A stretch of DNA of 64,000 bases from Eledone cirrhosa (Eukaryota), in assembly GCA_964016885.1 (NCBI GenBank), contig OZ024754.1:44020001-44084000 (forward strand). The letters are read 5' to 3'. A program made the translations under genes and the position numbers. This document shows positions 2,894 to 50,262 of this stretch, in pieces. How positions within the stretch are numbered: the first letter of the stretch is position 1; each line of letters opens with the position of its first letter. Below the pieces are notes generated by a model. That model searched no databases, had not been told where the DNA came from, and worked only from the letters and a program-made list of their open reading frames with translations.

Positions 2894-3109
2894 TTATATA
2901 TGTATGTATAAACGGAATTTTCTGAAGGAGAATCAAAATACTCTTATCAACATTGCTTATTCTTTACAAATTGATCTTCGAAGGAAACAGTTCTAGTCCT
3001 GTAGAAGCCATTTCTATATTAAACATTTATACTCTGCTATGTATTGAGTACCTTACTGTGGTTACCCCCGATTGAACCCGGGATACACACGCATACATAT
3101 ATATTTATA

Positions 3110-3418: not shown

Positions 3419-3614
3419 CTAGCAAGACTTTCCAAACATCCAGTCTATATACCGAAGGTAAAGGGAATTTCAATACAAATAGTTTTAATTTCTCGATGTC
3501 GACTCGTTCTTCCTTAAGAAAAGACTCGATGTATTTTTTCGATTCCACTGCAGCGGGCATGCCAAATTTATTATAGAAATACACACGAAAATTTCGATCT
3601 TTTTCGTCTGCCAT
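3419..3614 (-). CDS. TBC1D7: TBC1 domain family member 7 (TSC complex subunit), first coding exon; gene continues off the left edge
   Basis: MADEKDRNFRVYFYNKFG...PLPSVYRLDVWKVLL(G) resembles the TBC1D7 N-terminus as I recall it (RNFRSVYYEKVG...FPLPSMYRALVWKVLLG). Start context CACCATGG; 196 nt, then phase-1 donor G|GTAGGT at 3418. Confidence 0.9.
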
Positions 3615-3900
3615 GGTGAGAAATGAGCTTAGAAGAATCAGGTTTTAAAGTCCAGAATAATAAATATATATAATATATATATATATATTATATATATATA
3701 TATATATATCAATTCGATACGAACTGATTACGTCGATATGTCGCAGTGTTTTAAAGAGAAAGCCAGATTTTCTCGGCCACTTCTCGATTTATTAAAACAG
3801 CAGCGGCCACTCTCTTCATGTTTCTTAACAATTACCGCACAAGTGCTTTATATAGCAACTTTTTAGTTTCGTATAATTTCAATTAACCTTTACGTAAACA
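3615..3900 (-). promoter_or_regulatory. Probable 5' UTR/promoter of TBC1D7
   Basis: Mostly non-repetitive, locally CpG-enriched sequence just upstream of the ATG; position-based inference. Confidence 0.35.
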
Positions 3901-5355: not shown

Positions 5356-6815
5356 ACGAGAGTAACTCTATGTTGATGATTTCAGTAAATAGAATGTATT
5401 TCGTGGAGCAATTGAGAGGAAAAGTGGCTGTCACTCATCAAGGGTAAGCCAGTCCAATACTTAAAGTTATCTGGAAACAGTTTAATAATGTCTGTAAAAC
5501 CACCTTTACGACACCAAGTTATTATATACAATGGACTTTCTCCACCAAAAGAACGCGCTTCTAGTGGTTCCCACCCCAAAACCCACGACGTCCTAGAATC
5601 AATTGGAAACATTTTCACCAGGTTAGTATATATTAGAAATCTGTCCGTACAAAAAGATGTTTATTTTAAAAGTCACCGACATCGAACCAACGAGAGAGCT
5701 TCTAGGTGGTCGTTCGATTTTCCATCTAGAAGAAAGAGCAACCATAAATCCCTTAAATTACACGCTGCCATTTATAAGGGAAAAAATACGGAGCGAGAGA
5801 GGGGACAGAATGGATAATGTGGTTTTGGGTTCTGTGTATGGAAGAAAAAAGACTTAGTGGTCGCGATTGTGATACTTTTAATAACAGAATCTGTTCGATT
5901 GTTGCTAATCTGGGCCAAACAACGGCAACCCCACGCACGAGCGAAACAATCACTGTTGCAAACCCCGTCAACAGCACCGCACTGACCCCATATATAAGAT
6001 ATTTTATTGGGTTGTGTCATCGTAATCCTAAACTGGTAAGGACGGACGGACCTACGAAAGTTTCGCTGTCCAGTAGCGAGGACTTTAAATTTTCCTATAT
6101 ATCTTCAACATTAATATATTGATACTTCTCCGACTGTCCCATTATTTGAGAAAATTATACATCAGTGATCAAAACAATATTTTATTCTTTAATTATAAGC
6201 AATAATTCATTTATTCAAATGTCATTTTGTCCACATACGTGCTCCCAAATAGTCATGCATCTTCACTTTTGACACAAATTCCTTTAAATAAATTAAAGGA
6301 ATTACAGCGAAAGTGTATCAGTGGTCAGTTTTGATATAATGAACCGTATTAGAAACATTTTTATAAATTAGATTCTACAAAACGGGAATATAATAAGGAA
6401 ATAATTTTAGTAAATCTTTTTACTAGAGGAGTATCCTGATAAAGTTATTTACTATAGTATATTCCATTAAATCTATCAAAGTTGTTCCCCTTTAAAGGTG
6501 CTAACCCTTTCGTTGGTCACACCTTCCATTACCATCTCAGATGAGTTTTGCTTTCGCCCTTTCATTCCTTCATCTTTTATATGTATTAGCATACTCACTA
6601 ATATATATATATATATATATATGAGTGTGTATGTGAGACTAAGGATGGTTGCCCGAGGGTTATCAGAAAAAAAAACAAGTTAAATAACGTACTCAATACG
6701 TTAGTAGAGAAGCTGCACATTTATTTTATATAGAAATGATCTCTGCAACAGTAGAAGTGTTTCGTTCGTATGAAATCATCAGGAATGTCCCGTAGAAGTA
6801 ATCTCTCTCTCTCTC

Positions 6816-6853
<38 letters not shown>

Positions 6854-6874
6854 TTCTACGGGACATTCTTAGTG

Positions 6875-6912
<38 letters not shown>

Positions 6913-6915
<3 letters not shown>

Positions 6916-7104
6916 CGAAGGAAATGTGGTAAGGAACCAGATGGACCATAACGCACCAAAGTACTCAATACTTAGGGTAGTAGAGTGGGTAATAGGAACG
7001 AGTAGGACCCCGACGGCTGAGCTCAAGCCGTTTCGACGGCTAATTCTAGTCCAGAATTAGCCGTCGAAACGGCTTGAGCTCAGCCGTCGGGGTCCTACTC
7101 GTTC

Positions 7105-7106
<2 letters not shown>
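6913..7106 (-). mobile_element. Short (TA)n-inserted element with a perfect 54-bp fold-back and the 3' half of a hammerhead
   Basis: Arms 6994-7047 and 7053-7106 are exact reverse complements around loop AGTCC; contains GAAACGGCT-TGAGCTC-AGCCGTC. Confidence 0.7.
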
Positions 7107-7142
<36 letters not shown>

Positions 7143-7145
<3 letters not shown>

Positions 7146-7327
7146 AAAATGTTTGACCCCGACGGCAGAGCTCATGCCGTTTCGATGGTCATCTCAGAAA
7201 TAGCTGTCGAAAAGGTTTGAGCTCTGCCGTCGGGGTCAAACATTTTCCCATTACCCACTCTAATACCCTAAGTATAGAGTACTCTGGTGCGTTATGGTCC
7301 ATCTGGTTCCTTACCACACCTCCTTCG

Positions 7328-7330
<3 letters not shown>
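7143..7330 (+). mobile_element. Second, diverged copy of the same element, inverted relative to the first
   Basis: 7250-7330 is the near reverse complement of 6913-6993; it has its own imperfect hairpin at 7144-7248. Confidence 0.7.
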
Positions 7331-7420
<90 letters not shown>

Positions 7421-7907
7421 TAACAGATTAAAGTTTAAGCAAAGAATCGCTGCTTTCACCCTTATGTTATTTTAATAAATATTTGCTCTACGGTTCTTAT
7501 ATATTTGATATATATTTATCCTTATCGAACCCTCTTTGGATTTTAGTCTTCAAATTTATTATTATTACTATATATATATATATATATATATATTGATTTA
7601 AAATTGTAAGAAAGTCAAATACAATAAATTATTATTTATTCATTCATCTCTTCGGACATTTCAATACGGCTAGAATATCGCATCATTTGCAGAGCAGCTG
7701 GGGATTACTATTCAATAATTATCTATCTATATATATATTGTTATATTTGGGGAGAGTCATATTGTTATAATATTACCAGAAATAATAATAAAACACACTC
7801 ACTGTTTGGTTTGGATTGGTTTTCGCTTCTGTATATTTTATATCTTTTGAGTTAATTTATCTGGCAATCAATGTTTATCATTGATTGACTAATGGTTAAA
7901 AATATCG

Positions 7908-7944
<37 letters not shown>

Positions 7945-7970
7945 ATCAAAGTTCTTTCATCACGCATCTA

Positions 7971-8015
<45 letters not shown>

Positions 8016-8713
8016 TCCGAGGGCCCACCTCTGTTTTCGGGAAAAGGAGTCGTTGCCGAGTCGGATGTTAGATCTGTCGAAAACAAACGAAAAAACCTAG
8101 AAAAGTAAAATAAATATTCCCACCAAAGAGAGCACTGAGGTTGAAAAATTCCGAGGGATACAACCCATGCTCTCCCCAAATACTTTATTCGGGGAAAAAA
8201 AGTCGGTTGCGAGCATGCCGGGTGTAGTTGACAGCCGAGAGAAAATAGTAGTGAATAGTGAAGTAGAGTTCAAATATTCATTTTGTTAAGGCTAAATAGT
8301 GGGTCAACTTTGCTTTTCATCCATTCGAGGTCGATAGAAAAAGCGCAAGCCAAGTACTGGGGTCAAGTCTTCCTCTTTATCTCTTTCTCACTCCCTATCT
8401 CTCACTTTCTATCCTTCTCTGGAAGAAATCTGCTCTGGAGAGGAGATGGGCTTCGCCAGGTTTTTAAAATGTCCTGGTAAGGCCGTATGACAATATGGCA
8501 CCCTTACGACTCTCTCAAGAGTTACGGGACAAAAGAAAATTATATATATATATATATGTGTATATATATTGAGTAAAATGACAGGAGGCCGGACTGGTGA
8601 AATTCCTTCAAAGTTTTATTTCTGCAAACACTCTGCACATTTCAATGGTCAGGTTACGTAGCATCGATTGCTTTTCCTACTATTATATCATGGTTAACTC
8701 TACAGAAAGACTA

Positions 8714-16404: not shown

Positions 16405-18212
16405 CTGTCATTACTATGACAACATATTGATACCATAGAGATAGAACTGTCATTACTATGACAACATATTGATACCATAGAGATAGAACTGTCATTACTA
16501 TGACAATATATTGATATCATAGAAGACAGTTAAGAGATAGAACTGTCAGTACTATGACAATATATTGATATCATAGAAGACAGTTAAGAGATAGAACTGT
16601 CAGTACTATGACAATATATTGATATAGAAGACAGTTGAGAGATAGAACTGTCAGTACTATGACAATATATTGATATCATAGAAGACAGTTAAGAGATAGA
16701 ACTGTCAGTACTATGACAATATATTGATATCATAGAAGACAGTTAAGAGATAGAACTGTCAGTACTATGACAATATATTGATATCATAGAAGACAGTTAA
16801 GAGATAGAACTGTCAGTACTATGACAATATATTGATATCATAGAAGACTGTTGAGAGATAGAACTGTCAGTACTATGACAATATATTGATATCATAGAAG
16901 ACAGTTAAGAGATAGAACTGTCAGTACTATGACAATATATTGATATCATAGAAGACTGTTGAGAGATAGAACTGTCAGTACTATGACAATATATTGATAT
17001 CATAGAAGACTGTTGAGAGATAGAACTGTCAGTACTATGACAATATATTGATATCATAGAAGGCAGGTGAGAGATAGAACTGTCAGTACTATGACAATAT
17101 ATTGATATCATAGAAGACAGTTAAGAGATAGAACTGTCAGTACTATGACAATATATTGATATCATAGAAGACTGTTGAGAGATAGAACTGTCAGTACTAT
17201 GACAATATATTGATATCATAGAAGACAGGTGAGAGATAGAACTGTCAGTACTATGACAATATATTGATATCATAGAAGACAGTTAAGAGATAGAACTGTC
17301 AGTACTATGACAATATATTGATATCATAGAAGACAGGTGAGAGATAGAACTGTCAGTACTATGACAATATATTGATATCATAGAAGACTGTTGAGAGATA
17401 GAACTGTCAGTACTATGACAATATATTGATATCATAGAAGACTGTTGAGAGATAGAACTGTCAGTACTATGACAATATATTGATATCATAGAAGACAGGT
17501 GAGAGATAGAACTGTCAGTACTATGACAATATATTGATATCATAGAAGACAGTTAAGAGATAGAACTGTCAGTACTATGACAATATATTGATATCATAGA
17601 AGACAGGTGAGAGATAGAACTGTCAGTACTATGACAATATATTGATATCATAGAAGACTGTTGAGAGATAGAACTGTCAGTACTATGACAATATATTGAT
17701 ATCATAGAAGACTGTTGAGAGATAGAACTGTCAGTACTATGACAATATATTGATATCATAGAAGACAGGTGAGAGATAGAACTGTCAGTACTATGACAAT
17801 ATATTGATATCATAGAAGACAGTTAAGAGATAGAACTGTCAGTACTATGACAATATATTGATATCATAGAAGACAGGTGAGAGATAGAACTGTCAGTACT
17901 ATGACAATATATTGATATCATAGAAGACTGTTGAGAGATAGAACTGTCAGTACTATGACAATATATTGATATCATAGAAGACTGTTGAGAGATAGAACTG
18001 TCAGTACTATGACAATATATTGATATCATAGAAGACAGGTGAGAGATAGAACTGTCAGTACTATGACAATATATTGATATCATAGAAGACAGTTAAGAGA
18101 TAGAACTGTCAGTACTATGACAATATATTGATATCATAGAAGACTGTTGAGAGATAGAACTGTCAGTACTATGACAATATATTGATATCATAGAAGACAG
18201 GTGAGATAGAAC
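16405..18212. repeat. 54-bp minisatellite, ~33 copies, with 270-bp higher-order structure
   Basis: GAGATAGAACTGTCAGTACTATGACAATATATTGATATCATAGAAGAC plus a 6-nt variable site. Confidence 0.92.
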
Positions 18213-18231
18213 TATGCGATATTTTACTCAC

Positions 18232-19339: not shown

Positions 19340-21600
19340 ATATAAACAGCAATGTTGCATGGTAGTGAGACCTGGGCACTGTGCACAAGACTTGCACAGA
19401 TTGGAAAGGAATGAAGCTTGCATCCTTTGATGGATGTGTAATAGTAATATATGTGAACGGCAAAGCATAAATGTACTGAGAGAGAAACTAGGCATAAGAG
19501 GGATCAAATGCAGTGTGTAGAAGAGGAGATTGCGTTGGTATGGACATGTGATGTGTGTGAAGGATGACAGCTGTATGAAATGGTGCAGAGCGCTCAGAGT
19601 TGATGGAAGCCATGAAGTGGGGAGACCCAAGATGACATTGGACGGAGGTGATAAAAGCTGACCTTGCCCAATTTCACCTCTCAAAGGTGATGACACAGGA
19701 CCGACATCTCTGGTGTTACGCAGTATTACAGAAGACCAGACATCCCACAGGTACAGGCCAAGACTGGAGCATATAAATAATATGTACCACCCACCCCACC
19801 TCCCATGAGGAGAGGTCAAAGTATACATCCTTTGAAGCACCCAGTCCACACTGTAAAGTGGTCATGTAGGTGTCACGACAAAAAGCACCCAGTCCACACT
19901 GTAAAGTGGTCATGTAGGTGTCACAAAAAAAAGCGCCCAGTCCACACTGTAAAGTGGTCATGTAGGTGTCACGACAAAGCCCCCAGTCCACACTGTAAAG
20001 TGGTCGCATAAGTGTCACAACAAAATGCACCCAGTCTACACTGTAAAGTGGTCATGTAGGTGTCACGACAAAAAGTACCCAGTCCACACTGTAAAGTGGT
20101 CATGTAGGTGTCACAACAAAAAGCGCCCAGTCCACACTGTAAAGTGGTCATGTAGGTGTCACGACAAAAAGTACCCAGTCCACACTGCAAAGTGGTCATG
20201 TAGGTGTCACAACAAAAAGCGCCCAGTCCACACTGTAAAGTGGTCATATAGGTGTCACGACAAAGCCCCCAGTCCACACTGTAAAGTGGTCGCATAAGTG
20301 TCACAACAAAATGCACCCAGTCTACACTGTAAAGTGGTCATGTAGGTGTCACGACAAAAAGTACCCAGTCCACACTGTAAAGTGGTCATGTAGGTGTCAC
20401 GACAAAAAGCCCCCAGTCCACACTGTAAAGTGGTCGCATAAGTGTCACAACAAAATGCACCCAGTCCACACTGTAAAGTGGTCATGTAGGTGTCACGACA
20501 AAAAGCACCCAGTCCACACTGTAAAGTGGTCATGTAGGTGTCACAACAAAAAGCGCCCAGTCCACACTGTAAAGTGGTCGCATAAGTGTCACAACAAAAA
20601 GCCCCCAGTCCACACTGTACAGTGGTCATGTAGGTGCCACGACAAAAAGCACCCAGTCCACACTGTAAAGTGGTCATGTAGGTGCCACGACAAAAAGCAC
20701 CCAGTCCACACTGTAAAGTGGTCATGTAGGTGCCACGACAAAAAGTACCCAGTTCACACTGTAAAGTGGTCGTGTAGGTGTCACGACAAAAAGCATCCAG
20801 CACACACTGTAAATGTGATCATGTAGGTACCACGACAAAAAGTACCCAGTTCACACTGTAAAGTGGTCATGTAGGTGCCATGACAAAAAGTATCCAGTCC
20901 ACACTGTAAAGTGGTTGCGTAGGTGACAACAAAAAGCATCCAGTCCACACTATAAAGTGGTCGCATAGGTGACAACAAAAAGCCCCCCGTCGTAGGTGTC
21001 ACGACAAAAAGCCCCGTCCACACTGTAAAGTGGTGTCGTAGGTGTCACGACAAAAAGCCCCGTCCACACTGTAAAGTGGTCGCGTAGGTGTCACGACAAA
21101 AAGCCCCCCGTCCACACTGTAAAGTGGTCGTGTAGGTGACACAACAAAAAGCCTCCAGTCCACACTGTAAAGTGGTCGCATAGGTGTCACAACAAAAAGC
21201 ATCCAGTCCACACTGTAAAGTGGTCGCGTAGGTGACACAACAAAAAGCCCCCAGTCGTAGGTGACACAACAAAAAGCCTCCAGTCCACACTGTAAAGTGG
21301 TCACGTAGGTGACACAACAAAAAGCCTCCAGTCCACACTGTAAAGTGGTCACGTAGCTGATACAACAAAAAGCCCCCAGTCCACACTGTAAAGCGGTCAC
21401 GTAGGTGACACAACAAAAAGCCTCCAGTACTCATTGTGAATGAGGTTGGCACTAGGAAGGACATCAAGGAGTAGCAATGTGGCCAGAAACAGTTCTGTAT
21501 GAGAGGGGGGATACGGTCACCTGACCTGGTATTGTTCACAACAGGACAACTCGTGTAACCCATGCCAGTGTGGAAAAATGGTCGTTAAATGGAGATGATG
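19340..21600 (+). mobile_element. Degenerate copy of the same RTE 3' end, with its UTR expanded into a ~45-bp minisatellite (19836-21430)
   Basis: 19410-19800 aligns with 38675-39050; the UTR resumes after the array and ends in GATGATG. Confidence 0.85.
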
Positions 21601-24720: not shown

Positions 24721-25923
24721 CTGAAAGAAGTAAAAAAAAGCAAAGATAAATAAATAAATTTTATATTTAAATCTAATATCAAACAAAAAAAATGTGATAT
24801 GAGAATTAATTTTAAAGACAATTTTAGAATATTTCTTGGTTGTTATCTTCCTGGTTATTTGTGACCATATTTAAGTGAGTCAAAATGGGGTGAGGAGGTG
24901 AAATGTGTGACGTCTGGGTCCTGACGCCTGAACTAGTACCCTCCACCTCCAACTAACTTGCCCTAACAATATGATTGAGATAGGAAATGAATTGTGTGAA
25001 GTTATCTCCCTTGCATAAGAAATAAAAACAATAGAAATGTAGCTACACACACATATATACACACACATACATACATGCATACATACATACACACAGATAC
25101 ATATATACACATACATACATACAAACACAGATACATACATACATACATACAAACAGATACATACATACACATATAGAAACAAGTCCAGTAAGACAACCTT
25201 TCTAGTGCTGGTGGCATGAATAAAAGCACCCAGTCCATGCTGTAAAGTGGGGCTGGTGATAGGAAGGGCATCCAACCAGTATATTATTAATGCCAAATTA
25301 TGAGCACAAAATACAAATATTATATTATAGATACATAGATAATACTTATCTCAGTTTTTGTCATCATACTGTTTGTATCATAGCAACAATAAACAGGTGA
25401 TGTAGGGAGAAACTGGGGTATATAGAAGGGTAAGTCACTTATCTGGGATGGCACATGTCACATAGAATGGTACCTGTTGTGACAGGGAATGATACATGTG
25501 ACATAGAATGGTGCAATTTAGAATAGGTACACCATATCCTAGGGTGTATCTAGTTTACAATAGGTACACCATATCCTAGGGTGTGTAGGAATACAGTAGC
25601 TAGCGTATTCCTCCATTGTAAGAAGCAACTGAAAGCACTGAAGTAAGGAAGAGCATCTGGCCGTAAAACATTACTTTAAAATGTTCTATCCAGCCGATGA
25701 TAGCCTGAAAAAGTCAACATAAAATGATGATGAATGCCTTTGTTCAGATGGGCAAATGAAAAAAAAAAATGAAAAAACAAAAAATGAAAAAACAAAAAAT
25801 GAAAAAACAAAAAATGAAAAAAAAAAAAAAAAGAAAAAAATAAGAAAGGAAGCAGGCTGTCAATGAAATATTATTGTAATCATTATCATCATCATTGTTT
25901 AATGTTTATTAACACTAACTTAC

Positions 25924-26607
25924 CTGGGCTTTTCATTGCAGAGATTTCACAGTAAGTTTTATCAGATTCAGAAAGACTTCTCATATGGGATTTGCTGACC
26001 ACAGAATAAACATGCTCATCGTTGTTCTTAGAACTTTCTGCCTTTCCGTGACCAGACATAGTCAATGACTTCACCTTGGAGCTTGGCATTTCAGAATTCA
26101 TGAGGGCAGCTGCTCCTTTTACACAAGGTGACAACTCCTGGTATGGGGGCCGACTATTATTTCCGTTAAACTGAACATTGTCATATCTTGGTGAAACTGG
26201 TGGGGCTTTAGTTGGAATCACATGTCTGTCAAGGTTAGGAAGGGTGTCTTGTGAAGACAAGTTGTGTTCACAGTCAGAATTGCCGACTGATACGTATGTC
26301 ACAAATTTCTTAGTATCTTCAGAAGTATTATTTACATTAGAATATATACCACTTGAGGTAACCTTCCATTCTTGGTCTATTGGAGTAACTGGTCTGCAAG
26401 TTGGGGAATTTGAATAAAGTCCAGGGCTTGGAGTTCTTTGGGTTGGTGAGAGATTTTGTGGGGACATATCAACAGGAGACAGACTATTCGAGGTACATTG
26501 TTCTGGGGTTACAGTTAAGTTTTCTGGCTTCTTTTTCCTCTCGGGTGGAAGAGGGGTTTCTTGGCAGGGTTTGCATTCAAAGTCAGAAAATGTAGGAATG
26601 GAATTTT
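25924..26607 (-). CDS. PTP large Pro/Ser/Thr-rich (PEST-like) tail exon
   Basis: 684 nt open frame (E)NSIPTF...SAMKSP, tag|...|gtaagt, phase 1 to 1. Confidence 0.88.
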
Positions 26608-26758
26608 CTAAATAGAAAAAGATTTGTAACAAATATATATAGAGAGGCAGGTGTGTGTATGTAAGTAGGAAAGATAGGTGTGTGTGTGAGTGAGAGAGAG
26701 TTAGTGAGAGAGAGTGAGAGAGAGTGAGTGTGTTAAATAAAAACAGTTGAATATTTAC

Positions 26759-26780
26759 CGCATGTGACGTTTTCATATCC
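26759..26780 (-). CDS. PTP 22-nt microexon GYENVTC
   Basis: Pyrimidine tract, cag|...|gtaaat; phase 0 to 1 is exactly what is needed to join the flanking exons. Confidence 0.75.
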
Positions 26781-27264
26781 CTGGAAAGAGAAAAAATAAA
26801 GAAAATTAGATGAAGGACTTCGTTTAGTTGTTGTTAGATATATGTAATGATGTTAATAATGGAGGTGTTGTGAGGTTGTTTGTGTGTGAGAAAGGATCTA
26901 ATATATAATGATTAGAGAACTGTGAGACTGTGTCCAGTTTATTATTTTTTATCACGTTATTAAAATAAGTTGGATTACTTTGAATAAATCATGAATAAAT
27001 ATTATATGATTTATCTACTAAATTCTGTAGCTCTTGATTAAAGATAAATATTCTTATATATGAAATGTATTGCTTGTTTCAAGATTCACTTCTTTTAAAA
27101 TTTTCAAATGTCAACACTTCTGTTAGTGTCCATTATATCATAACACTTTGCCATACACTATATCACATCACTTATATAAACGTTTATATATTTGCATCAT
27201 TCTATGTATGTGTATATATATATATACATATACACCACAACATCCAGTCCAAAATAATGAATCG

Positions 27265-27502
27265 TGTAGGTGTCACGACAAAAAAACAGTCCGCGCTGTA
27301 GTGTGGCCGTGTAGGTAACATGGTAAAAAGCTCCCAGTCCACACTGTAAATGTGGTTGGTGTTAGGAAGGGCATCCAGCTGTAGAAAACCAGCCAGACAG
27401 TCCTATACGAGCGAGACACGGTCACCCGACCAACCTTGCCTCAAATTGGGACAATTCCTGTCTAACCCATGCTAGCGTAGAAGATAGACGTTAAACGACG
27501 AT
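27265..27502 (+). mobile_element. RTE 3' UTR fragment; similar fragments at ~22160-22350, 25205-25280 and 60850-61007
   Basis: GTTAGGAAGGGCATCCAGCTGTAGAAAACC...CCCATGCTAGCGT. Confidence 0.7.
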
Positions 27503-27520
27503 ACATATACATATATATAC

Positions 27521-27553
<33 letters not shown>

Positions 27554-27594
27554 TACATGTATATGAAAAGCAATAAAACCTTTCTAGAACTTAC

Positions 27595-27732
27595 ATGGTC
27601 ACTGACATCACCAGACTTGGTCATGTTAATAGTTTCATAGACATTGATATTTTCATAATGGCAGATTCCCAGTGTCTTCAAATGGTTCTTGAATATCTGT
27701 CGCACAACATAATGTGCCAGTTGGTATTGGTC
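27595..27732 (-). CDS. PTP exon DQYQLAHYVVRQIFKNHLKTLGICHYENINVYETINMTKSGDVSDH
   Basis: 138 nt, tag|...|gtaagt; QY ends the catalytic domain. Confidence 0.9.
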
Positions 27733-27986
27733 CTAGGTAGAGAGTTCAATAGCAATTATTGAACACCACTTAGACAACCACATGCATACATACCTGCATA
27801 CACACACAAACATACATACATGTACACACATATACATGCATACACACACACACAAACATACATGCATACACACGTGCGTGCACACAGACATATGCACACA
27901 CAGACACACATACATGCACATGCACACACAAACATGAATATACACACAGAAGTATACATGTACACATAGGCACTATGATAGATGTT

Positions 27987-28765
27987 TTAATGACAGCCAC
28001 TATGACAAGTGTCCTAATGACAGCCACTATGACAGGTGTCCTAATGACAGCCACTATGACAGGTGTCCTAATGACAGCCACTATGACAGGTGTCCTAATG
28101 ACAGCCACTATGACAAGTGTCCTAATGACAGCCACTATGACAGGTGTCCTAATGACAGCCACTATGACAGGTGTCCTAATGACAGCCACTATGACAGGTG
28201 TCCTAATGACAGCCACTATGACAGGTGTCCTAATGACAGCCACTATGACAGGTGTCCTAATGACAGCCACTATGACAAGTGTCCTAATGACAGCCACTAT
28301 GACAGGTGTCCTAATGACAGCCACTATGACAGGTGTCCTAATGACAGCCACTATGACAAGTGTCCTAATGACAGCCACTATGACAGGTGTCCTAATGACA
28401 GCCACTATGACAAGTGTCCTAATGACAGCCACTATGACAAGTGTCCTAATGACAGCCACTATGACAAGTGTCCTAATGACAGCCACTATGACAAGTGTCC
28501 TAATGACAGCCACTATGACAGGTGTCCTAATGACAGCCACTATGACAAGTGTCCTAATGACAGCCACTATGACAAGTGTCCTAATGACAGCCACTATGAC
28601 AAGTGTCCTAATGACAGCCACTATGACAGGTGTCCTAATGACAGCCACTATGACAGGTGTCCTAATGACTGCCACTATGATAGTTGTTATGATAACTGTC
28701 CTAATGACTGCCACTATGACATGTCCTAATGGCAGCCACTATGACAGCCACTATGACATGTCCTA
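27987..28765. repeat. 24-bp minisatellite, ~30 copies
   Basis: CTAATGACAGCCACTATGACA(G/A)GTGTC. Confidence 0.92.
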
Positions 28766-28828
28766 TGTACATCAGATTCAAGAACTTCAATGTCAGCAAG
28801 AAATTAGTTTGAGAACTGAAATACTTAC

Positions 28829-28906
28829 AGGAGTTTGAACCATTGATTGTCGCTGGGTTCTCATAAATTTAATAATTTCACAAAGGCTAAAGTCTGGAGT
28901 GATTTT
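28829..28906 (-). CDS. PTP exon KITPDFSLCEIIKFMRTQRQSMVQTP
   Basis: 78 nt, tag|...|gtaagt; MRxQR and VQT (Q-loop). Confidence 0.93.
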
Positions 28907-29386
28907 CTATAATGAAACAATAAAGATAAACAAATTGATGAGACTTTGGATTAAAACAAGACAGTTCCACTTTATAATATTGTCATCGGCTTCATTGTTT
29001 GTGTGTGTGTGTGACAGCTCACACCTAGGCAGGTTTAGCTGGCCTCTTCCAAAGTATATCTCGGAGGTGTCTTGGGTAATTTAATGATAGGGACCCCAGT
29101 CCTATCATCACATTTCTACAGCTGAGTAAACTGGAGCAACATGAAATAAAGAGTCTTGCTCAAGGATACAACACATCACCCGGTCCGAGAATTGAACTCA
29201 CACCCTTTCGATTGCAAGCCCAATGCTCTAACCACTAGGCCATGCACCTTCATATGTCCAGTACTCTAATGAGAGCTCAGTAATCAGAAGAAGTAGGTAG
29301 CTGTAAAAGCCAAACTTGCTATCTTCAATTCAGTATACCTAGCACATAGAAATCTAGGCCTTGTGTAAAACTATTTCTATACTCAC

Positions 29387-29453
29387 ATTAGATTTCAGCA
29401 GATTCTGGGCATAGTCTATGGCACAAATAGTTCCAGTTCGTCCACAGCCAGCA
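29387..29453 (-). CDS. PTP exon (S)AGCGRTGTICAIDYAQNLLKSN
   Basis: 67 nt, cag|...|gtgagt; completes HCSAGCGRTG. The AGCGRTGxICAIDY string is characteristic of PTPN12/18/22. Confidence 0.95.
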
Positions 29454-29668
29454 CTGAAGGAGAAGACAGAAGGTATGATTGATAACATTTCAATATATAA
29501 GAAACACAGGAAAGATAAAGAGGGTGAGGTGAGAGGGTGGGGTGAGAGGGTGAGGCGAGGGGTTGAGGCGAGGGGGTGAGGAGAGGGAGTGAGGCGAGGG
29601 GTGAGGCGAGGGGGTGAGACGAGGGGGTGAGACGAGAGAGTGAGACAGGGAAGATGAGTGTTAGTTAC

Positions 29669-29877
29669 CTGCAATGGACAACAACTGGTACTTCTGGTCT
29701 TACTCGCTCTGCTAACATCTGGATGGTCTGCAAGATAGAAGTTTGGTCCTCGACATCAGGCACTCCGTGGTCAGGCCATTCAGCGAGATGAAGTTGGGTG
29801 ATATGTTGTACAGTGTCTCCTTGCTTGGCACTCATTTGGCGCACAATGAAGTCTGATGAATGCTTTGTTTCACTGAG
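29669..29877 (-). CDS. PTP exon LSETKH...WPDHGVP...VPVVVHC(S)
   Basis: 209 nt, cag|...AG|gtaact, phase 0 to 2; WPD loop and catalytic HC. Confidence 0.95.
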
Positions 29878-30457
29878 CTGTGAACAAACAACATGAAAAT
29901 AAACAGATTTATTCAATACTGTAAGTCAGTAGAGTGCAGGGGTGTTGTAGTGGGATACAGCATGTCTTGGGTACATTAAACCTAGCAGAGTTCATCCCCT
30001 CTCTTGGTCTGAACACAGCCGATTTCTTCCAGAGAAGGAGAAAGAGTGATAAAGAGGAAGTGAGAAAGAGATATAAAGGAAGAATTAACCCAATACTGGA
30101 CTGGTACTTTTGTTTATCAACCTCGAAAAAATGAAAACAAAGTTGACCTTGGTGGGATTTGAACTCAGACCACAGAAAAATGCAATACCATAAAACATTC
30201 TATCTGACCTAACAATTCTCTTGACATGTACATCACCTCTAGAGTATGTTAATATCTGATTAATGTTCACTAAAGACTGAACAGAGACGGTGAACATGTA
30301 TACCACCTCTAGAGTGTGTTAACATCTCATTGCTCTCCCTAAGTGTAGCATTAAGTTTTTGGTATGCTGTCAGTGGTTTGCAATCTGATAAATTCTGCCT
30401 TTCCTCTCCTCGATATACTGATTACTATGAAGAAATAAAAAACAAAACAGCACTTAC

Positions 30458-30526
30458 CAATTTAACTTCAATGTTGCCAAATAACTTGGTTTCACTGTCT
30501 TTAGGCCAATATCGCTCACATTTTGG
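30458..30526 (-). CDS. PTP exon PKCERYWPKDSETKLFGNIEVKL
   Basis: 69 nt, cag|...|gtaagt; KCxxYWP motif. Confidence 0.95.
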
Positions 30527-31218
30527 CTGGAAGAAAGATAAAGATAGAAAATTGGTTGAAATTTTAGTGATGGAAAGGGAGATAAAGAGGGGAAATGAAG
30601 ACAACACAAGAGAGACATCAAGCTGATAAATCTGGTTTTTGACACTTCTTACTCTGACCAAACTAAGAAAATGACTAAGCTTGCATTTTCTACTACACAG
30701 TTCACACTGATCATGACAAGTCATACCACCAGACATCCCCTCCACTGCTTTCGATATTTCCACAATGCTGTTATGCAACAAAGATGTTTAGAAATTTATT
30801 TATTGCAGTAATTAATATATATTTACTTTATACAAATTTGTCTAAGCTGATTTTTTAAGCTTCAGTAATGCCCCTCATTGAGGTCTGTACCCTAGTTGTG
30901 GCCTTAGTAGTAGCACCTGCCCTGATTATAGGTTTAATTGAGGAAGAGGTTCCTGGGACAACACCTACTCTCCTTCGTGTTTAATGAGATTACTGTCTGC
31001 TCTGAGGCATTGAACTGAGGGTTGCAAGTCAACAAAAACTGTGTTACTTCTGTGTTTTGGCTTGCATTGAGAAATGATAACAACATGCAGTTAGCTATTT
31101 AAAACTAAGAGGACTCAGCTATTAAGTGTCAGCCATAGTTATATGTTGTCTCAGTGGTAGGAGATGTCCTGAGTAGCCTTGATATCTCTTGATCAGCCAA
31201 TCTCCAATAAGTTTATCT

Positions 31219-32069: not shown

Positions 32070-32144
32070 CTAGAACAATATACAACGGCTTAATTAAGGC
32101 TTTCTGTTATTGCTGTAGGGAAAAACCCTTAAACACCACCGCCT

Positions 32145-33545
32145 CATCATAAAATACACCCAGTCCACTCTGTAAAGTGGTAGTGTTGGTGTCATGATAA
32201 AATACACCCAGTCCATTCTGTAAAGTGGTAGTGTTGGTGTCATGATAAAATACACCCAGTCCACTCTGTAAAGTGGTAGTGTTGGTGTCATGATAAAATA
32301 CACCCAGTCCACTCTAAAGTAGCAGTGGTGGTGTCAATAAAATACACCTAGTACACTCTGTAAAGTGATAATGTTGGTGTCATGATAAAATACACCCAGT
32401 ACATTCTGTAAAGTGGTAGTGTTGGTGTCATGATAAAATACACCCAGTCCACTCTGTAAAGTGGTAGTGTTGGTGTCATGATAAAATACACCCAGTCCAC
32501 TCTAAAGTAGCAGTGGTGGTGTCAATAAAATACACCTAGTACACTCTGTAAAGTGATAATGTTGGTGTCATGATAAAATACACCCAGTCCACTCTGTAAA
32601 GTGGTAGTGTTGGTGTCATGATAAAATACACCCAGTCCATTCTAAAGAAACAGTGGTGGTGTCAATAAAATACACCTAGTACACTCTGTAAAGTGGTAGT
32701 GTTGGTGTCATGATAAAATACACCCAGTACATTCTGTAAAGTGGTAGTGTTGGTGTCATGATAAAATACACCCAGTCCACTCTGTAAAGTGGTAGTGTTG
32801 GTGTCATGATAAAATACACCCAGTCCACTCTAAAGTAGCAGTGGTGGTGTCAATAAAATACACCTAGTACACTCTGTAAAGTGATAATGTTGGTGTCATG
32901 ATAAAATACACCCAGTACACTCTGTAAAGTGGTAGTGTTGGTGTCATGATAAAATACACCCAGTACATTCTGTAAAGTGGTAGTGTTGGTGTCATGATAA
33001 AATACACCTAGTCCACTCTGTAAAGTGGTAGTGTTGGTGTCATGATAAAATACACCTAGTCCACTCTGTAAAGTGGTAGTGTTGGTGTCATGATAAAATA
33101 CACCTAGTCCACTCTGTAAAGTGGTAGTGTTGGTGTCATGATAAAATACACCTAGTCCACTCTGTAAAGTGGTAGTGTTAGTGTCATGATAAAATACACC
33201 CAGTACACTCTGTAAAGTGGTAGTGTTGGTGTCATGATAAAATACACCTAGTCCACTCTGTAAAGTGGTAGTGTTGGTGTCATGATAAAATACACCCAGT
33301 ACACTCTGTAAAGTGGTAGTGTTAGTGTCATGATAAAATACACCCAGTACACTCTGTAAAGTGGTAGTGTTGGTGTCATGATAAAATACACCCAGTACAC
33401 TCTGTAAAGTGGTAGTGTTAGTGTCATGATAAAATACACCCAGTACACTCTGTAAAGTGGTAGTGTTGGTGTCATGATAAAATACACCCAGTCCACTCTG
33501 TAAAGTGGTAGTGTTAGTGTCATGATAAAATACACCCAGTACACT
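32145..33545. repeat. ~48-bp minisatellite related to the RTE 3' UTR unit
   Basis: AAAATACACCCAGTCCACTCTGTAAAGTGGTAGTGTTGGTGTCATGAT. Confidence 0.9.
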
Positions 33546-37523: not shown

Positions 37524-38598
37524 GAGATTCTGTGGACCGTTACTGCCTGATGAAGATCTTACAGGCTTATGGGATCCCCAAGAGGATAGTGGACCTGATA
37601 TCACTGCTCTACACCAACACCCAAGTCATTACACCTGATGGGATGACAGAGTTCTTTGAGATACTGGCTGGAGTGCTCCAGGGAGATACATTGGCTCCCT
37701 ACCTTTTTATCATCGTAGTGGACTATTGTATGTGCCTTGCACTGGAGAAACACCAGGACTCTGGCTTTACTGTAGCACCGGCTGAGAGCAGGAGAGTTCG
37801 GGCGAAAAAGGTATCGGATGCTGAATTTGCCGACGACATAGTTTTGGTGACAAATACAGTGAAGGAGGCAGAGGATTTCATGCGGGAGGTTGAGACTGTG
37901 TCGATGAGTGTGGGGCTGAGAATGAATGAGACTAACACAAAATATCTGGTAGAAAATGTTGAGAAGCCAGAGGGAATCACTAATATAGGCGGGAAGCCGC
38001 TGGAATTGGTTGAGGACTTCCTGTATTTGGGAGCAAAGATTGGGAATACGGAGGATGATGTGGTTGAGAGGAAGAGCAAGGCCTGGGCGGCGTGCCACAG
38101 CTTGAGATCGGTGTGGAAGTCGGACCTTCGTAGAGACCTGAAAGTCCGCCTCTTCATTGCTGTAGTGGAGTCTGTGCTGCTGTATGGATCTGAGACTTGG
38201 ACACTGACCAAGAAACTCACTCAGATGGTGGATGGGTGCTACACGAGAATGCTGAGGATGGCTCTGAACATTAATCAGTATACACTGAGGATGAAAAACT
38301 CAGAGCTGTATGGGAGCCCCCCAAAAGTCAGCTCAAAAGTGACACAGAGGAGACTGAGGTTGGCTGGACATGCTCACCGACATCCAGAGTTGACATTGCA
38401 CTCAGTGCTCCTTTGGGAGCCCCTACATGGACACACTAGAAGAGGAAGATCAAGGTTAACATATGTTGATGCCCTAAGGACAGACACTGGTCTGTTGGAG
38501 ATGCAGGATATGGCAGCGATAATGAGGGACAGAGACCGCTGGAGAGAACTCGTCCATGGATCTCGGGAATTTTACTCGCCTTAGATAGATAGATAGAT
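37524..38598 (+). mobile_element. 5'-truncated non-LTR retrotransposon (RTE-like) RT and C-terminal fragment
   Basis: 350-aa ORF with GVLQGDTLAPYLF, FADD, FLYLG, LLYGSETW and RRLRLAGH; (TAGA)n tail; embedded in a TA/TTA tract. Confidence 0.9.
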
Positions 38599-38663
38599 AT
38601 TATATATATATTATATATATATATATTATATATATTATATATATATATTATATTATATATATT

Positions 38664-39326
38664 TTAGAGAGAAACGAAGCCTGCATGCTCCGATGGATGT
38701 GTAACAGTAATATACGTGAACGACAAAGCATAAATGAATTGAGAGAGAGACTGAGCATAAGAGGAATCAAATGCTGCGTGCAGGAGAGGCGGTTACGCTG
38801 GTATGGACATGTGATGCGTATGAAGGATGACAGCTGCATAAAAAGGTGCAGAGCACTAGAAGTTGATGGAAACCGCGGAGTGGGGAGACCCAAGATGACT
38901 TGGGATGAGGTGATAAGAGCCGACCTTACCCAACTACACCTCTCAAAGTCAATGACACACGACCGTGACTTCTGGCGTCACGCAGTAATACAGGGTACCC
39001 GACCTCCCATGGGTACATGCTGAAGCATATAAACAATATGCCCCCCCCCCCCCACCGCAAGGTGGTCGTGGAGGTGCCACGGCAAAAAAGCACCCAGCCC
39101 ACACTGTAAAGTGGACGTGTAGGCGCCACGAAAAAGCACCCAGCACTCACTGTAAATGAGGTTGGTGTTAGGAAGGGCATCCAGCTGTAGAAATCAAGCC
39201 AGATCAGTTCCTGTATGAGCAAGGCATGGTCAGCCGACCAGACACTGCCCACAACAGGACAACCCGTCTAACCCATGCTAGCGTGGAAGAACGGACGTAA
39301 AACGGTGATGATGATGATGATGATGA
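38664..39326 (+). mobile_element. RTE LINE 3' end (second family) with 3' UTR and (GAT)n tail
   Basis: MLRWMC...RRLRWYGHVMR...GRPKMTW, then UTR AAAAAGCACCCAG..CACTGTAAA..GGAAGGGCATCCAGCTGTAGAAA. Confidence 0.88.
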
Positions 39327-39403: not shown

Positions 39404-40075
39404 ATATTATATATATTATATTATATATATATATATATATTATATTATATATATAATATTATATATTATATATATATATATTATATTATATATTATATAT
39501 ATATTATATATATATATTATATTATATATATTATATATATATATTATATTATATATATTATATATATTATATATATATTATATATATATATTATATTATA
39601 TATATATTATATATATATTATATATATATATTATATTATATATATATTATATATATATTATATTATATATATATTATATTATATATATATTATATTATAT
39701 ATATATTATATATATATTATATATTATATTATATATAATATTATATATATATTATATATATATTATATATATATTATATTATATTATATTATATATTATA
39801 TATATATTATATTAATTATATATATATTATATATATATTATATTAATTATATATATATTATATATATATTATATTAATTATATATATATTATATATATTA
39901 TATATATATTATATTATATATATATTATATATTATATATATATATAAAACCATATTTATTTCATGTTAAATTATGGTATGCCTTCATCAGACGAAATATC
40001 CTGATGTCTTCCAAAAGTAACGGTTGCATTTTGAAAGGGTACGTCAATGTTTATTTATAAAACTGGTATATATTG

Positions 40076-40140
40076 TATTTCGTCTGATGAAGGCATACCA
40101 TAATTTAACATGATATCCTTGAAATATGTATAATGAAATA
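40076..40140 (+). ncRNA. Minimal type I hammerhead ribozyme motif
   Basis: TATTTCGT-CTGATGA-[helix II 40091-40120, 9 of 11 pairs]-GAAA-TATGTA-TA|ATGAAATA. Helix I is 8 bp; predicted cleavage after 40132 (AUA). Confidence 0.72.
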
Positions 40141-40606
40141 AATATGGTTTAATAAATATAGTTTCCATTTATTAATATCGTATATATATATATATATATT
40201 TGTGAGAACTGAATCTCAAATCCCACAATAAACTTTCACTCTTTAGACAGATTAACAAGTAGTACACACACACACCCATACACTCAGAACGCAAGGGGCC
40301 GTAACTCTATGCCGAAAAACATGTTTCCGACGCTCTACCGATTCTGCCAATAATAATAATGGTTTAATAACAATAATATACAATCACAGCACTAAATCTT
40401 AAAACAGAATGTCTTAGAAAGAATGACTCATGGAGAACCTGGTTAGAATAATCTAATTTTGGGGTTATAAATAATAATGATGATGATGGTGATGATGATG
40501 ATGATGATGAACATAATGATAAACATAAGTGAAGAAGTTCTGAAAGTAAATAGAAAAAAAATAGTACAAGAAATGTTAAGAGAAGAAACTGTAGATGGTA
40601 CAGGAA

Positions 40607-46994: not shown

Positions 46995-48840
46995 CCCTTC
47001 CAATACCAACCATATTTCTAATGAAAAACAACTGCCTATGGTTACAGATATACACAAGGACACAGAGGCATATTTACACACACAAACAGACCCATACAGA
47101 CCTCCCCCACCCAAACTGAGTCATCTCTTGCTCCACCCTGGTTCAAGCATGAAATGATGAAACCAGTCAGACATGGAAAATTCGTGTTTTCCACACCCCT
47201 CCCCCAGCTTATTACAACACCCCTCCACCATCTATTCTAACCCCCACCCCGCCCTTATAAATCCCCCTCCTCTCCCACCTACTCTAACTCCACCCACCCT
47301 TCCATCTATTATATCCCCCCACCCTTCTAAACCCCCCTCCCACCTATTCTAACTCCACCCCTCTGTTCTAAACACTGCCACACATACATCTATCCCCTCC
47401 TCCAACCTATTCTAAATGTCCCCCTCCCCCCACCTATTCTAACATCCCCACCCTACCCTCCCATCTATTCCAACCCCACCTCGCCCTTATAACCCCTCCC
47501 CCCTATTACTTCACCGTCACAATCCACACAAGAGTTGTTGACTTGGAAAGTTCTGCTGCTTCGCTTAGTAATGGACTTTTCCAGCAGATCAGGAAATAAC
47601 AAGGACAAACGTTGTACAGGAGTTGGGCTGTTCCATTTAGTGATGATGGGGGGGGGGGTAGAGGATGGCGGCGAAGGAGGGATTACTAGCAGAGGGTGGT
47701 GGTGGTGGTTGTGGCAGAGGTGGGATTACTAGCAGAGGGTGGTGGTGGCAGAGGTGGGATTACCAGCAGAGGGTGGTGGTGGTGGTGGTGGTGGCAGAGG
47801 TGGGATAACCAGCAGAGGATGGTGGTGGTGGTGGTGGCAGAGGTGGGATAACCAGCAGAGGATGGTGGTGGTGGTGGTGGCAGAGGTGGGATAACCAGCA
47901 GAGGATGGTGGTGGTGGTGGTGGCAGAGGTGGGATTAGCAGCAGAGGGTGGTGGTGGTGGAAGGATTCGTGGCAGGAATATGAAAAAAAAAGTGAAGGCA
48001 ACAGCTTAACTGTTAACATCCTGAACCACATGAGACAGCATTAGCAAGACATTCTTGAAAAGTACTAAACAACACTATGATTGCATCTTGTTAAAAATTA
48101 AAGTCTTTACCACAAGATACAGCATTTTTGTTTTACGATTTGTTCGTCAGTAAAGATACTATTAGGGGTTAATTGGCAGAGTCGTTAGAACGTCCGTTAG
48201 AATGGTTTATGGTATTCATTCCAGCTCTCTGCTCTCTAGGTAAAATACCACTGAGGTCAACTTTGCTTTTCATCCTTTCGGGGTCGCTAAAAAAGTACCA
48301 GTCAAGTACTGGGGGTCTATTCTTCCTTTCTCTGCAAGAAATCTGCTGTACTCAGGCCTGGAGAAGGATGGGTTCTGCAAGGCTTAAAATGCCCAAGAAA
48401 CGTTGTATGTCAATATGGCATCCCTACGATTCTATCAGGAGTTATGGGACCCTACATACAATACAAAGACACTATAATTATTTGAATTAACAAATCCATT
48501 TTTAGATATTTTTAGCAAAATTATTACAGGATGTTCAGTGTTAAGGAACAAGTTTCAACTCCCAATTTCTCTCTCTCACTCAGACTCACTCAGACTCTCT
48601 CTCTCTCTCTCTCAAAAGACAGAAAGAAGGCTAGCTGAAGAAATATTTATAAAAAGTTGCAAATTTTATTTTACCTTGTTGAAAGTGCTAATGAAATTTG
48701 ATGCTAATCACACCCTATTTGATACACCTGCATACCATTTCTATTTTACCCCATATATCTAATACCATTGATGTCTTTCATACACCTATATCCCACTACT
48801 ATTTTGCTCAACATACCCGATACCCAAATATCTGACGATG

Positions 48841-50262
48841 GGTCTTGTATACATCTAGTTGGTATAGCAAGGAGGGTCTTGTATACAGCTAGTTGGTATA
48901 GCAAGGAGGGTCTTGTATACAGCTAGTTGGTATAGCAAGAAGGGTCTTGTATACAGCTAGTTGGTATAGCAAGAAGGGTCTTGTATACATCTAGTTGGTA
49001 TAGCAAGGAGGGTCTTGTATACAGCTAGTTGGTATAGCAAGAAGGGTCTTGTATACATCTAGTTGGTATAGCAAGGAGGGTCTTGTATACAGCTAGTTGG
49101 TATAGCAAGGAGGGTCTTGTATACAGCTAGTTGGTATAGCAAGGAGGGTCTTGTATACAGCTAGTTGGTATAGCAAGGAGGGTCTTGTATACAGCTAGTT
49201 GGTATAACAAGGAGGGTCTTGTATACAGCTAGTTGGTATAGCAAGGAGGGTCTTGTATACAGCTAGTTGGTATAGCAAGGAGGGTCTTGTATACAGCTAG
49301 TTGGTATAGCAAGGAGGGTCTTGTATACAGCTAGTTGGTATAGCAAGGAGGGTCTTGTATACAGCTAGTTGGTATAGCAAGGAGGGTCTTGTATACAGCT
49401 AGTTGGTATAGCAAGGAGGGTCTTGTATACAGCTAGTTGGTATAGCAAGGAGGGTCTTGTATACAGCTAGTTGGTATAGCAAGGAGGGTCTTGTATACAG
49501 CTAGTTGGTATAACAAGGAGGGTCTTGTATACAGCTAGTTGGTATAGAAAGGAGGGTCTTGTATACAGCTAGTTGGTATAGCAAGGAGGGTCTTGTATAC
49601 AGCTAGTTGGTATAACAAGGAGGGTCTTGTATACAGCTAGTTGGTATAGCAAGGAGGGTCTTGTATACAGCTAGTTGGTATAGCAAGGAGGGTCTTGTAT
49701 ACAGCTAGTTGGTATAGCAAGGAGGGTCTTGTATACAGCTAGTTGGTATAGCAAGGAGGGTCTTGTATACAGCTAGTTGGTATAGCAAGGAGGGTCTTGT
49801 ATACAGCTAGTTGGTATAGCAAGGAGGGTCTTGTATACAGCTAGTTGGTATAACAAGGAGGGTCTTGTATACAGCTAGTTGGTATAGAAAGGAGGGTCTT
49901 GTATACAGCTAGTTGGTATAGCAAGGAGGGTCTTGTATACAGCTAGTTGGTATAGCAAGGAGGGTCTTGTATACAGCTAGTTGGTATAGCAAGGAGGGTC
50001 TTGTATACAGCTAGTTGGTATAGCAAGGAGGGTCTTGTATACAGCTAGTTGGTATAACAAGGAGGGTCTTGTATACAGCTAGTTGGTATAGAAAGGAGGG
50101 TCTTGTATACAGCTAGTTGGTATAGCAAGGAGGGTCTTGTATACAGCTAGTTGGTATAGCAAGGAGGGTCTTGTATACAGCTAGTTGGTATAGCAAGGAG
50201 GGTCTTGTATACAGCTAGTTGGTATAGCAAGGAGGGTCTTGTATACAGCTAGTTGGTATAGA
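48841..50262. repeat. 34-bp minisatellite, ~42 copies
   Basis: GGGTCTTGTATACAGCTAGTTGGTATAGCAAGGA. Confidence 0.93.

Follow-up and report, generated by a model that had tools for sequence, protein, structure and literature searches.

Penelope-like retroelements insert with a shorter, inverted copy of their pseudo-LTR (pLTR) placed head to head with the first, and a tail may be present on one inverted pLTR (PMC3846280). They prefer (TA)n targets, where they occur with tails (PMC8557442). The pLTRs of clades with a C-terminal endonuclease are reported to carry full hammerhead ribozymes, which are absent in Naiads (PMC8557442, PMC4209133; further hammerhead features in PMC7229834 and PMC6765202). 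A Penelope-like protein was shown in vitro to cleave both strands of AT-rich DNA and to extend both; with PAc, the Poseidon element of Anolis carolinensis, two internal RNA start sites bound the tail, and ribozyme cleavage is dispensable (PMC11167929). How the inverted ends are formed is stated to be unresolved (PMC3846280, PMC8557442, PMC11167929). An annotation of O. vulgaris counts 31 recently active Penelope-like families, given without sequences in the excerpt used (PMC13282606).

The window analyzed here is a stretch of 64,000 nucleotides from Eledone cirrhosa that contains a perfect palindrome between (TA)n tracts. As excerpted, Pen2a and Pen3a of Adineta vaga (PMC3846280) and Penelope of Drosophila virilis (PMC2377424) resemble it in the head-to-head inverted pLTR that is shorter at its 5′ end, the palindrome at the junction, the tail on one inverted pLTR and the AT-rich targets. 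They differ from it in that no ORF lies between the repeats here, the unit is only ~140 nt long, the hammerhead core is missing, the tail has 79 nt rather than 31–34, and a TATA-like word lies upstream. Inverted pLTRs in head-to-head position, palindromes at their junctions, tails on one side and insertion into (TA)n have all been described before, and what is distinct here is the lack of a body, the length of ~140 nt, the 79-nt tail, the core-less hammerhead and the one fixed side of the junction.

Two head-to-head units between TA tracts

The palindrome is exact, as a first-pass annotation of this DNA had claimed: the arms 6994–7047 and 7053–7106 are reverse-complementary at 54 of 54 positions around the spacer AGTCC. 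For the 193-nt unit, a folding energy of −133.1 kcal/mol was obtained (z −16.8), which none of 200 shuffles reached. The feature is larger than that annotation gave. It comprises two homologous units, L at 6915–7106 and R at 7143–7328 on the opposite strand, and in both of them a tail-less arm meets, head to head, a long arm with a 79-nt tail.

The long arm of L (6915–7047) consists of the inverted short-arm sequence and 79 nt outermost, and the short arm occupies 7048–7106. The inverted arm proper (6994–7047, − strand) has a 5′ end that varies among family copies, and only this arm carries the 3′ extension or tail (6915–6993, − strand). Its counterpart is the tail-less arm at 7053–7106 (+ strand). 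R has its own inner inverted repeat in the same layout, with a tail-less arm (7143–7194, − strand), the palindromic part of the tailed arm (7195–7249, + strand) and a 79-nt tail (7250–7328, + strand). All four outer ends abut (TA)n, in tracts left of L (6880–6914), between L and R (7108–7142) and right of R (7329–7414).

Comparison of the two long arms gives 16 mismatches between L and R in 133 nt, 5 of which fall in the 79-nt tail. Six letters diagnostic of R versus L are present in both arms of each unit, so the arms of one unit are single-source or homogenized. Between the arms of R, the outer 31 nt are identical (0/31) and the inner 22 nt differ at 9 (Fisher p 0.0001), a contrast for which simple ageing does not account. 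A coding tail (ATG at 6949–6947, 11 codons to the end) was considered and dropped, as the low-agreement continuation in RAD reads soon hits a stop codon by eye.

L and R lie ~3.3 kb upstream of the start codon of a TBC1D7-like gene. As a single locus they are an ordinary young repeat insertion that shows no sign of a host function. An exon of the TBC1D7 homolog at 3420–3617 (− strand) matches human TBC1D7 (E 2e-14). The window is rich in microsatellites and minisatellites, with long minisatellite arrays at 16405–18213, 19835–21440, 32144–33545, 48837–50290, 53872–56243 and 58935–60579, among which those at 19.8–21.4 kb and 32.1–33.5 kb are ~70–76% alike. Protein tyrosine phosphatase-like exons occupy 25892–30787 (− strand), including a weak Y_phosphatase match at 29354–29755 (E 0.0005, below the cut-off), and LINE-type reverse transcriptase fragments, which we take to be RTE-like, lie at 37526–39023 (+ strand; RVT_1, E 3e-10). 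A further head-to-head pair sits between TA tracts at 39945–40185, with 41-nt arms that are 98% complementary around a 77-nt spacer. Both of its arms begin with CTGATGA, and only the right arm has a ~30-nt extension, with a short internal duplication there. The pair does not fold as a hammerhead, and it looks like a second Penelope-like family.

Family copies and their junctions

Four of 23 listed public runs, namely three contig sets and one read set, were aligned to 6911–7112 at 80% likeness. The contigs X1, which may stem from the source of the window itself, and the RAD reads X21 come from organism A, and the contig sets X5 and X6 from organisms B and C, respectively. Matches were found in 20,665 of 16,285,364 contigs (X1), 24,499 of 12,467,656 reads (X21), 43 of 8,254,286 contigs (X5) and 9 of 6,943,267 contigs (X6); these match counts are not copy numbers, and they indicate a very abundant family of ~140 bases in TA microsatellites. 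At least 99% likeness was reached by 3,699 of the 20,665 matching X1 contigs, which places L near a large young subfamily, so that the 54/54 identity needs no conversion. Of the two origins offered in the first-pass annotation for the lack of mismatches, a recent event or arm-to-arm conversion, the young copy is therefore upheld.

The junction was found beyond L itself. One X1 contig with 12 other letters spans the whole spacer with at least 31 letters on each side (6969–7092), a second spans the 7047|7048 joint (6960–7079), and indels at 7045–7048 occur in 5, 34, 17, 13 and 17 X1 contigs. The bridging of the junction by a diverged contig and the indels in dozens of contigs argue that other copies have it too and that it is no peculiarity of this assembly, a point on which the first-pass annotation had sought confirmation.

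Outer ends were read from loose ends, i.e. the best 20 of 457 with 30 letters each. Among these 20, ends that run into TA lie at 6970, 6992 and beyond 7096. The loose end behind 7096 represents arms that end at 7106 into TA and is supported by 1,158 X21 reads; 20 X1 contigs have tail-less arms against TA at 6992. Another 1,072 X21 reads continue past 6925 with non-TA letters. Read-end pile-ups in X21 at 7045 and 7055 were not taken as biology, as they coincide with AATT at 7042–7045 and 7055–7058; they probably mark the restriction site of the library, by which X21 loose ends would be enriched for variants without AATT. Incidentally, organisms B and C have an identical 30 letters of flank behind a 60-nt, tail-only fragment (6911–6970 in X5 and X6), so the fragment is either an old orthologous insertion or that of one species with two labels.

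Un-inverted copies continue upstream of 7047 with AT-rich sequence (81 X1 contigs at an agreement of 0.58, and single contigs in X5 and X6), which is mirrored by 818 X21 reads running GGACTAAAT behind 7047. Accordingly, T7047 and AGTCC are native, and the innermost 13-bp stem is a mere palindrome center. The first-pass annotation had read these 13 bp as helix II of a hammerhead, predicting ACCCC-CTGANGA directly before GACGGCTA in intact copies. This sequence is absent from the best 20 of 457 loose ends, the same 20 include no loose end at 7035 as expected of intact copies, and by the spacing in a neighboring relative (N1, below) the helix II slot covers only 7054–7065. Rare intact copies may be among the other 437 loose ends. 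A second variant joins at 7058 (1,046 X21 reads), where a possible 7-bp helix II with two G-U pairs follows a 4/7 match to CTGATGA. In its mirror consensus (773 reads), 3 of 30 letters are different, and all three lie within the putative helix II stem. The variant may represent a subfamily with a decayed ribozyme, in which case the earlier view would be favored in part.

Because the query is palindromic, a skip from its left arm to its right arm amounts to an inversion junction. Among the best 15 of 81 such joints, several of them listed without the letters between the arms, 11 enter at 7047–7052 from left-arm ends at 6952–7014, and the other four enter at 7058, 7066, 7068 and 7089. In a second listing, five of nine X1 rows enter at 7047–7053 with 1–4 letters between. 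Microhomology of 3–4 nt (TAG, AGT, TAGT) occurs at 5 of the 11 joints versus 7% of random pairs (binomial p 0.0006). An upward bias affects both the clustering and the p value, as these are the best-supported rows, a start upstream of 7047 cannot produce a clean joint on this query, and aligners favor microhomology. The tail-less arm thus has one fixed start, whereas the tailed arm is cut at scattered places over about 95 nt. Breakpoints had been predicted to cluster at helix II; instead, one side of the junction is fixed and the end of the inverted arm varies between 6952 and 7047.

The fixed start zone of the tail-less arm, with native TAGTCCA at 7047–7053 (+ strand), emerges from joints, loose ends and the N1 spacing. 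The fixed side may correspond to an RNA 5′ end, with +1 near A7048. A TATA-like word lies 29–31 nt before A7048 in un-inverted copies, and TTAGTCC fits the Initiator consensus. The consensus behind this putative promoter comes from AT-rich loose ends with an agreement of 0.58.

A probable hammerhead half and its relatives

The tail-less arm of L carries a credible 3′ half of a hammerhead at 7066–7088 (+ strand), with GAAA at 7066–7069, a 5-bp helix III (7070–7074/7082–7086) closed by the loop TGAGCTC, and GTC followed by GGGG at 7086–7092. When the 138-nt unit was shuffled with its dinucleotides preserved, GAAA, a stem of at least 5 bp and TH occurred together on either strand in 24 of 20,000 cases, and a looser version with a stem of at least 4 bp in 125 of 20,000. 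With these frequencies and the positional homology to N1, the placement of GAAA, helix III and GUC in the first-pass annotation stands. The predicted cut site would be 7088|7089. Two X1 joints enter at 7089, right behind GUC, one with a 3-nt ambiguity and both near the detection edge; they are too few to support self-cleavage.

The rest of a ribozyme was not found. The CUGANGA core of a type I hammerhead is present in neither L nor R, the sole CTGANGA within 6000–8500 being at 6782 on the − strand, and it is likewise absent from the best 20 of 457 loose ends. No helix II and helix I lie within one un-inverted unit, where a single arm folds otherwise and the hammerhead half is not its lowest-energy fold (z +0.67). 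The 13-bp stem and GACCCC are supplied only by the inverted arm, and the upstream letters of un-inverted copies, as listed, do not include the partners. Among the best 40 of 206 variant rows, A7082T is common in helix III and T7074A is absent, with no family-wide compensatory change visible. We also considered the short arm of R as TGA, a 3-bp helix II, GAAA and a compensated helix III, but four A/G transitions suffice in an ungapped alignment, and the variants listed include no subfamily of this kind, which leaves a weak lead.

The CTGANGA at 6782 belongs to N1, a neighboring member of a related family (6640–6800, ends approximate, − strand), which by sequence comparison has CTGATGA at 6782–6776, a 12-nt helix II slot, GAAA at 6763–6760 and a 3′ motif at 6709–6689. 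N1 does not fold as a hammerhead. A second copy of its family, N2 (2915–3090, ends approximate, + strand), has the motif at 3032–3051, and the N1–N2 alignment score of 70 was reached by 0 of 2,000 shuffles. The motif, CTCT..GTATTGAGTAC, is common to L, R, N1 and N2; in L, it lies in the tail (6961–6985, − strand), 63 nt downstream of GAAA. The GAAA-to-motif distance is 63, 63, 64 and 57 nt in L, R, N1 and N2, respectively. L and N1 share the 11-mer GTATTGAGTAC, which occurs three times in the window versus 0.046 expected. Local alignment scores were reached by 6 of 2,000 shuffles for L–N1 and 1 of 2,000 for L–N2, for pairs picked after the motif, which itself was defined only after the matches were seen. 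A loose form of the motif has five matches in the window versus 1.46 expected, one of them a CT microsatellite, and 2 of 100 shuffles reach five. The motif was rejected as a conserved hairpin (z −0.03 to −1.24 in the four copies).

In the register of N1, the helix II slot of L falls at 7054–7065, and the core slot, 7047–7053, holds the native TAGTCCA. With the N1 spacing and the common motif, the family looks descended from a hammerhead-bearing end that has lost its core, and the ribozyme half is likely vestigial.

Some further features of the relatives were observed. N1 has a truncated inverted partner at ~6852–6879 on the far side of a palindromic (TC)n(TA)n(GA)n stretch (arms 6769–6825 and 6826–6882, 86%). 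N2 is flanked by TA tracts a short way downstream of the first TBC1D7-like coding exon, and by eye its helix III region resembles hammerheads of the Hydra type.

The Hydra clade, which includes Hydra-1_Obim of Octopus bimaculoides, shares with this family the (TA)n targets and resembles it in having a type I hammerhead, of which a putative half is present here, near the 3′ end, and two of six Hydra-clade consensus 3′ ends have CTCT..GAGCAC (GAGYAC) after the hammerhead by eye; however, the Hydra elements keep CUGANGA with a very short helix III, and the 3′ end of Hydra-1_Obim is unlike the unit here (PMC8557442). Naiads, of which the octopus ones are marked ‘HHR_half_core’, are similar in (TA)n targeting, inverted truncated copies, tails and the lack of a canonical hammerhead (PMC8557442). 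Two consensus ends just before and at the octopus Naiad entries contain GTCGAAAC and a stem with a palindromic hexamer loop, but they have CTGATGA downstream and no other visible sequence in common with the family, and cephalopod Naiads are described as old remnants, whereas the present family has young copies (PMC8557442). When five short family words were looked up in the excerpted supplement of that paper, four were absent and the fifth occurred only in unrelated coding DNA (PMC8557442).

Database searches gave little more. No Rfam family reached its gathering score in the whole window, and an E-value scan of 6500–7600 gave 103 sub-threshold matches, none of which was a hammerhead; those to miRNA families were discarded as reflecting hairpin shape only. 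Family members numbered zero in a metagenome collection, in prokaryote genomes and in viral contigs. A looser metagenome pattern hit 13 contigs of 62–74% GC without TA tracts, where one 35-nt BLAST match was judged to be chance. No description of the family was found in the literature searched, and it may already be listed in Repbase, Dfam or the O. vulgaris library (PMC13282606, Zenodo).

Origin of the inverted units

We conceive the palindrome as a solo pLTR insertion by a Penelope-like element, in which two twin-primed cDNAs were made on one RNA, and give this account about an even chance. A Penelope-like origin as such, under either priming model, is probable. The first-pass annotation had likened the palindrome to the inverted 5′ ends of Penelope-like insertions, and this likeness holds up. 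L and R each consist of a head-to-head pair with a 5′-truncated inverted copy (joint ends 6952–7033), as in endonuclease-bearing Penelope-like elements, and both sit in AT-rich (TA)n targets. Each has a one-sided 3′ extension as well, but of 79 nt versus the 30–40 nt reported for tails. No reverse transcriptase or GIY-YIG gene was linked to them: a Pfam scan of eight chosen ORFs of the window gave no GIY-YIG match and one RVT_1 ORF (37526–38584), which is 30 kb off and unlinked.

In twin priming, an RNA would start near A7048, using the TATA-like word at about −30 and the Initiator-like word. After cleavage of both (TA)n strands by an endonuclease, the two 3′ ends would prime cDNA synthesis on the same RNA, the one internally (+59) and the other at the tail end (+138). 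The first cDNA would run off the 5′ end of the RNA, generating the fixed start, and the second would stop at variable places. The 3′ end of the first (..ACTA) could then anneal to TAG(T) in the second, by which the two would be joined; this joining step is our conjecture. A perfect palindrome would result when the second cDNA is almost full length, as in the young copy L.

PAc offers a parallel, with two RNA-internal starts that bound a tail downstream of the hammerhead and with cutting and extension of both target strands, for which we propose a likeness here; its ribozyme is intact, unlike that of the present family, and the formation of head-to-head junctions is not addressed in the excerpt (PMC11167929). 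The RNA could belong to a mini-element of its own or form the 5′ portion of a long Penelope-like transcript. Since PAc starts internally near the RNA 5′ end, short units could derive from a long autonomous transcript, and the X21 reads that continue past 6925 with non-TA letters might fit such an origin. Some points speak against a Penelope-like reading. The 79-nt tail exceeds the length reported for Penelope-like elements, CUGANGA is absent although the pLTRs of C-terminal-endonuclease elements reportedly carry full hammerheads, and the putative promoter has a TATA-like word, whereas the promoter of Drosophila virilis Penelope is TATA-less (PMC2377424). The lack of a linked reverse transcriptase gene, the failure of a single arm to fold into the hammerhead half and the uneven divergence between the arms of R count against it as well.

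A snap-back of a single strand, the main rival, would generate similar units. The tail-bearing strand, a cDNA or an antisense RNA as proposed by Arkhipova and colleagues, would end at a fixed site, fold onto its own TAG(T) and copy itself, and integration would involve trimming of the first arm where the tail begins. The scheme is that of the first-pass annotation with another priming site, and we regard it as possible but rather unlikely. In its plain form, with the cDNA folding back on helix II, it is not supported: the native spacer letters lie on the tail-less arm of L, and simple self-copying cannot add a tail to the arm that lacks those letters. With trimming, it explains why the arms of a unit are identical and why microhomology is seen at 5 of 11 joints, and un-inverted copies do have GGCTAA as an imperfect upstream complement of TTAGCC. 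Self-priming has been proposed for head-to-head palindromes (PMC3846280), as has endonuclease resolution for tail formation (PMC8557442). However, with the spacer letters on it, the tail-less arm would have to be the first strand, although the copy exceeds it by 79 nt, and an extra, precise trimming would be needed in both L and R. The ends of the inverted arm spread over about 95 nt rather than being confined to a helix, and two internal start sites in vitro explain tails without trimming (PMC11167929).

Mobilization as DNA, by which the palindrome or the whole 6915–7328 block would be a foldback element (a TA-target MITE or Helentron-like), is improbable. The 133-bp inverted ends, the 90% complementarity of 6880–7047 to 7196–7363, the TA flanks and the very high abundance would suit it, but most copies of such an element should have a uniform length and both terminal inverted repeats, in contrast to the variable inverted arms and the single arms among the listed joints and loose ends. 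X5 and X6 include single truncated arms (6911–6970 followed by TA-rich flank), the junction is fixed on one side and scattered on the other, and the summed contig depth at 7046–7048 is less than a tenth of that at 7030 or 7056, which is partly an edge effect. Moreover, 16 of 133 nt separate L from R, whose inner palindromes are different too, and the hammerhead half has a relative with an intact core next door. Still less probable is that single-arm insertions became palindromic, or were kept identical, only later by template switching in replication or arm-to-arm conversion. The identical outer and divergent inner parts of the R arms and the small indels clustering at the hairpin tip are in line with such events, which leave the common start zone and the two outer ends of many copies unexplained, and the closeness of L to a large subfamily means that youth alone explains 54/54. 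As no listed contig matches the junction of L without differences, an assembly or amplification artefact was considered too; with a diverged contig bridging the junction, dozens of contigs having junction variants and R repeating the layout with its own letters, it is very improbable indeed.

Two other classes of short repeats were dismissed. Animal non-LTR retrozymes are also short, non-coding and hammerhead-related and are thought to be mobilized by Penelope-like elements, but they are direct tandem repeats of 170–400 nt with complete type I hammerheads, in contrast to the inverted, core-less pairs here (PMC7229834; bioRxiv 10.64898/2026.07.22.740005). As for a tRNA-derived SINE, the window has no tRNA gene and the family no Rfam match, though decayed heads could escape both.

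Within the Penelope-like account, the units may even be a high-copy, protein-less ‘Penelope SINE’, in which an RNA polymerase II start has replaced the hammerhead core and the junctions record twin priming, a notion that we offer tentatively and with considerable doubt. The short, abundant family makes the choice between self-priming and twin priming testable by counting in the assembly, using the fixed and variable sides of the junctions, the two fixed outer ends and the diagnostic letters in both arms. Perfect 54-bp hairpins across the genome would, where transcribed, supply double-stranded RNA. The Penelope SINE reading, if true, would make the family a genome-scale read-out of how head-to-head ends are formed.
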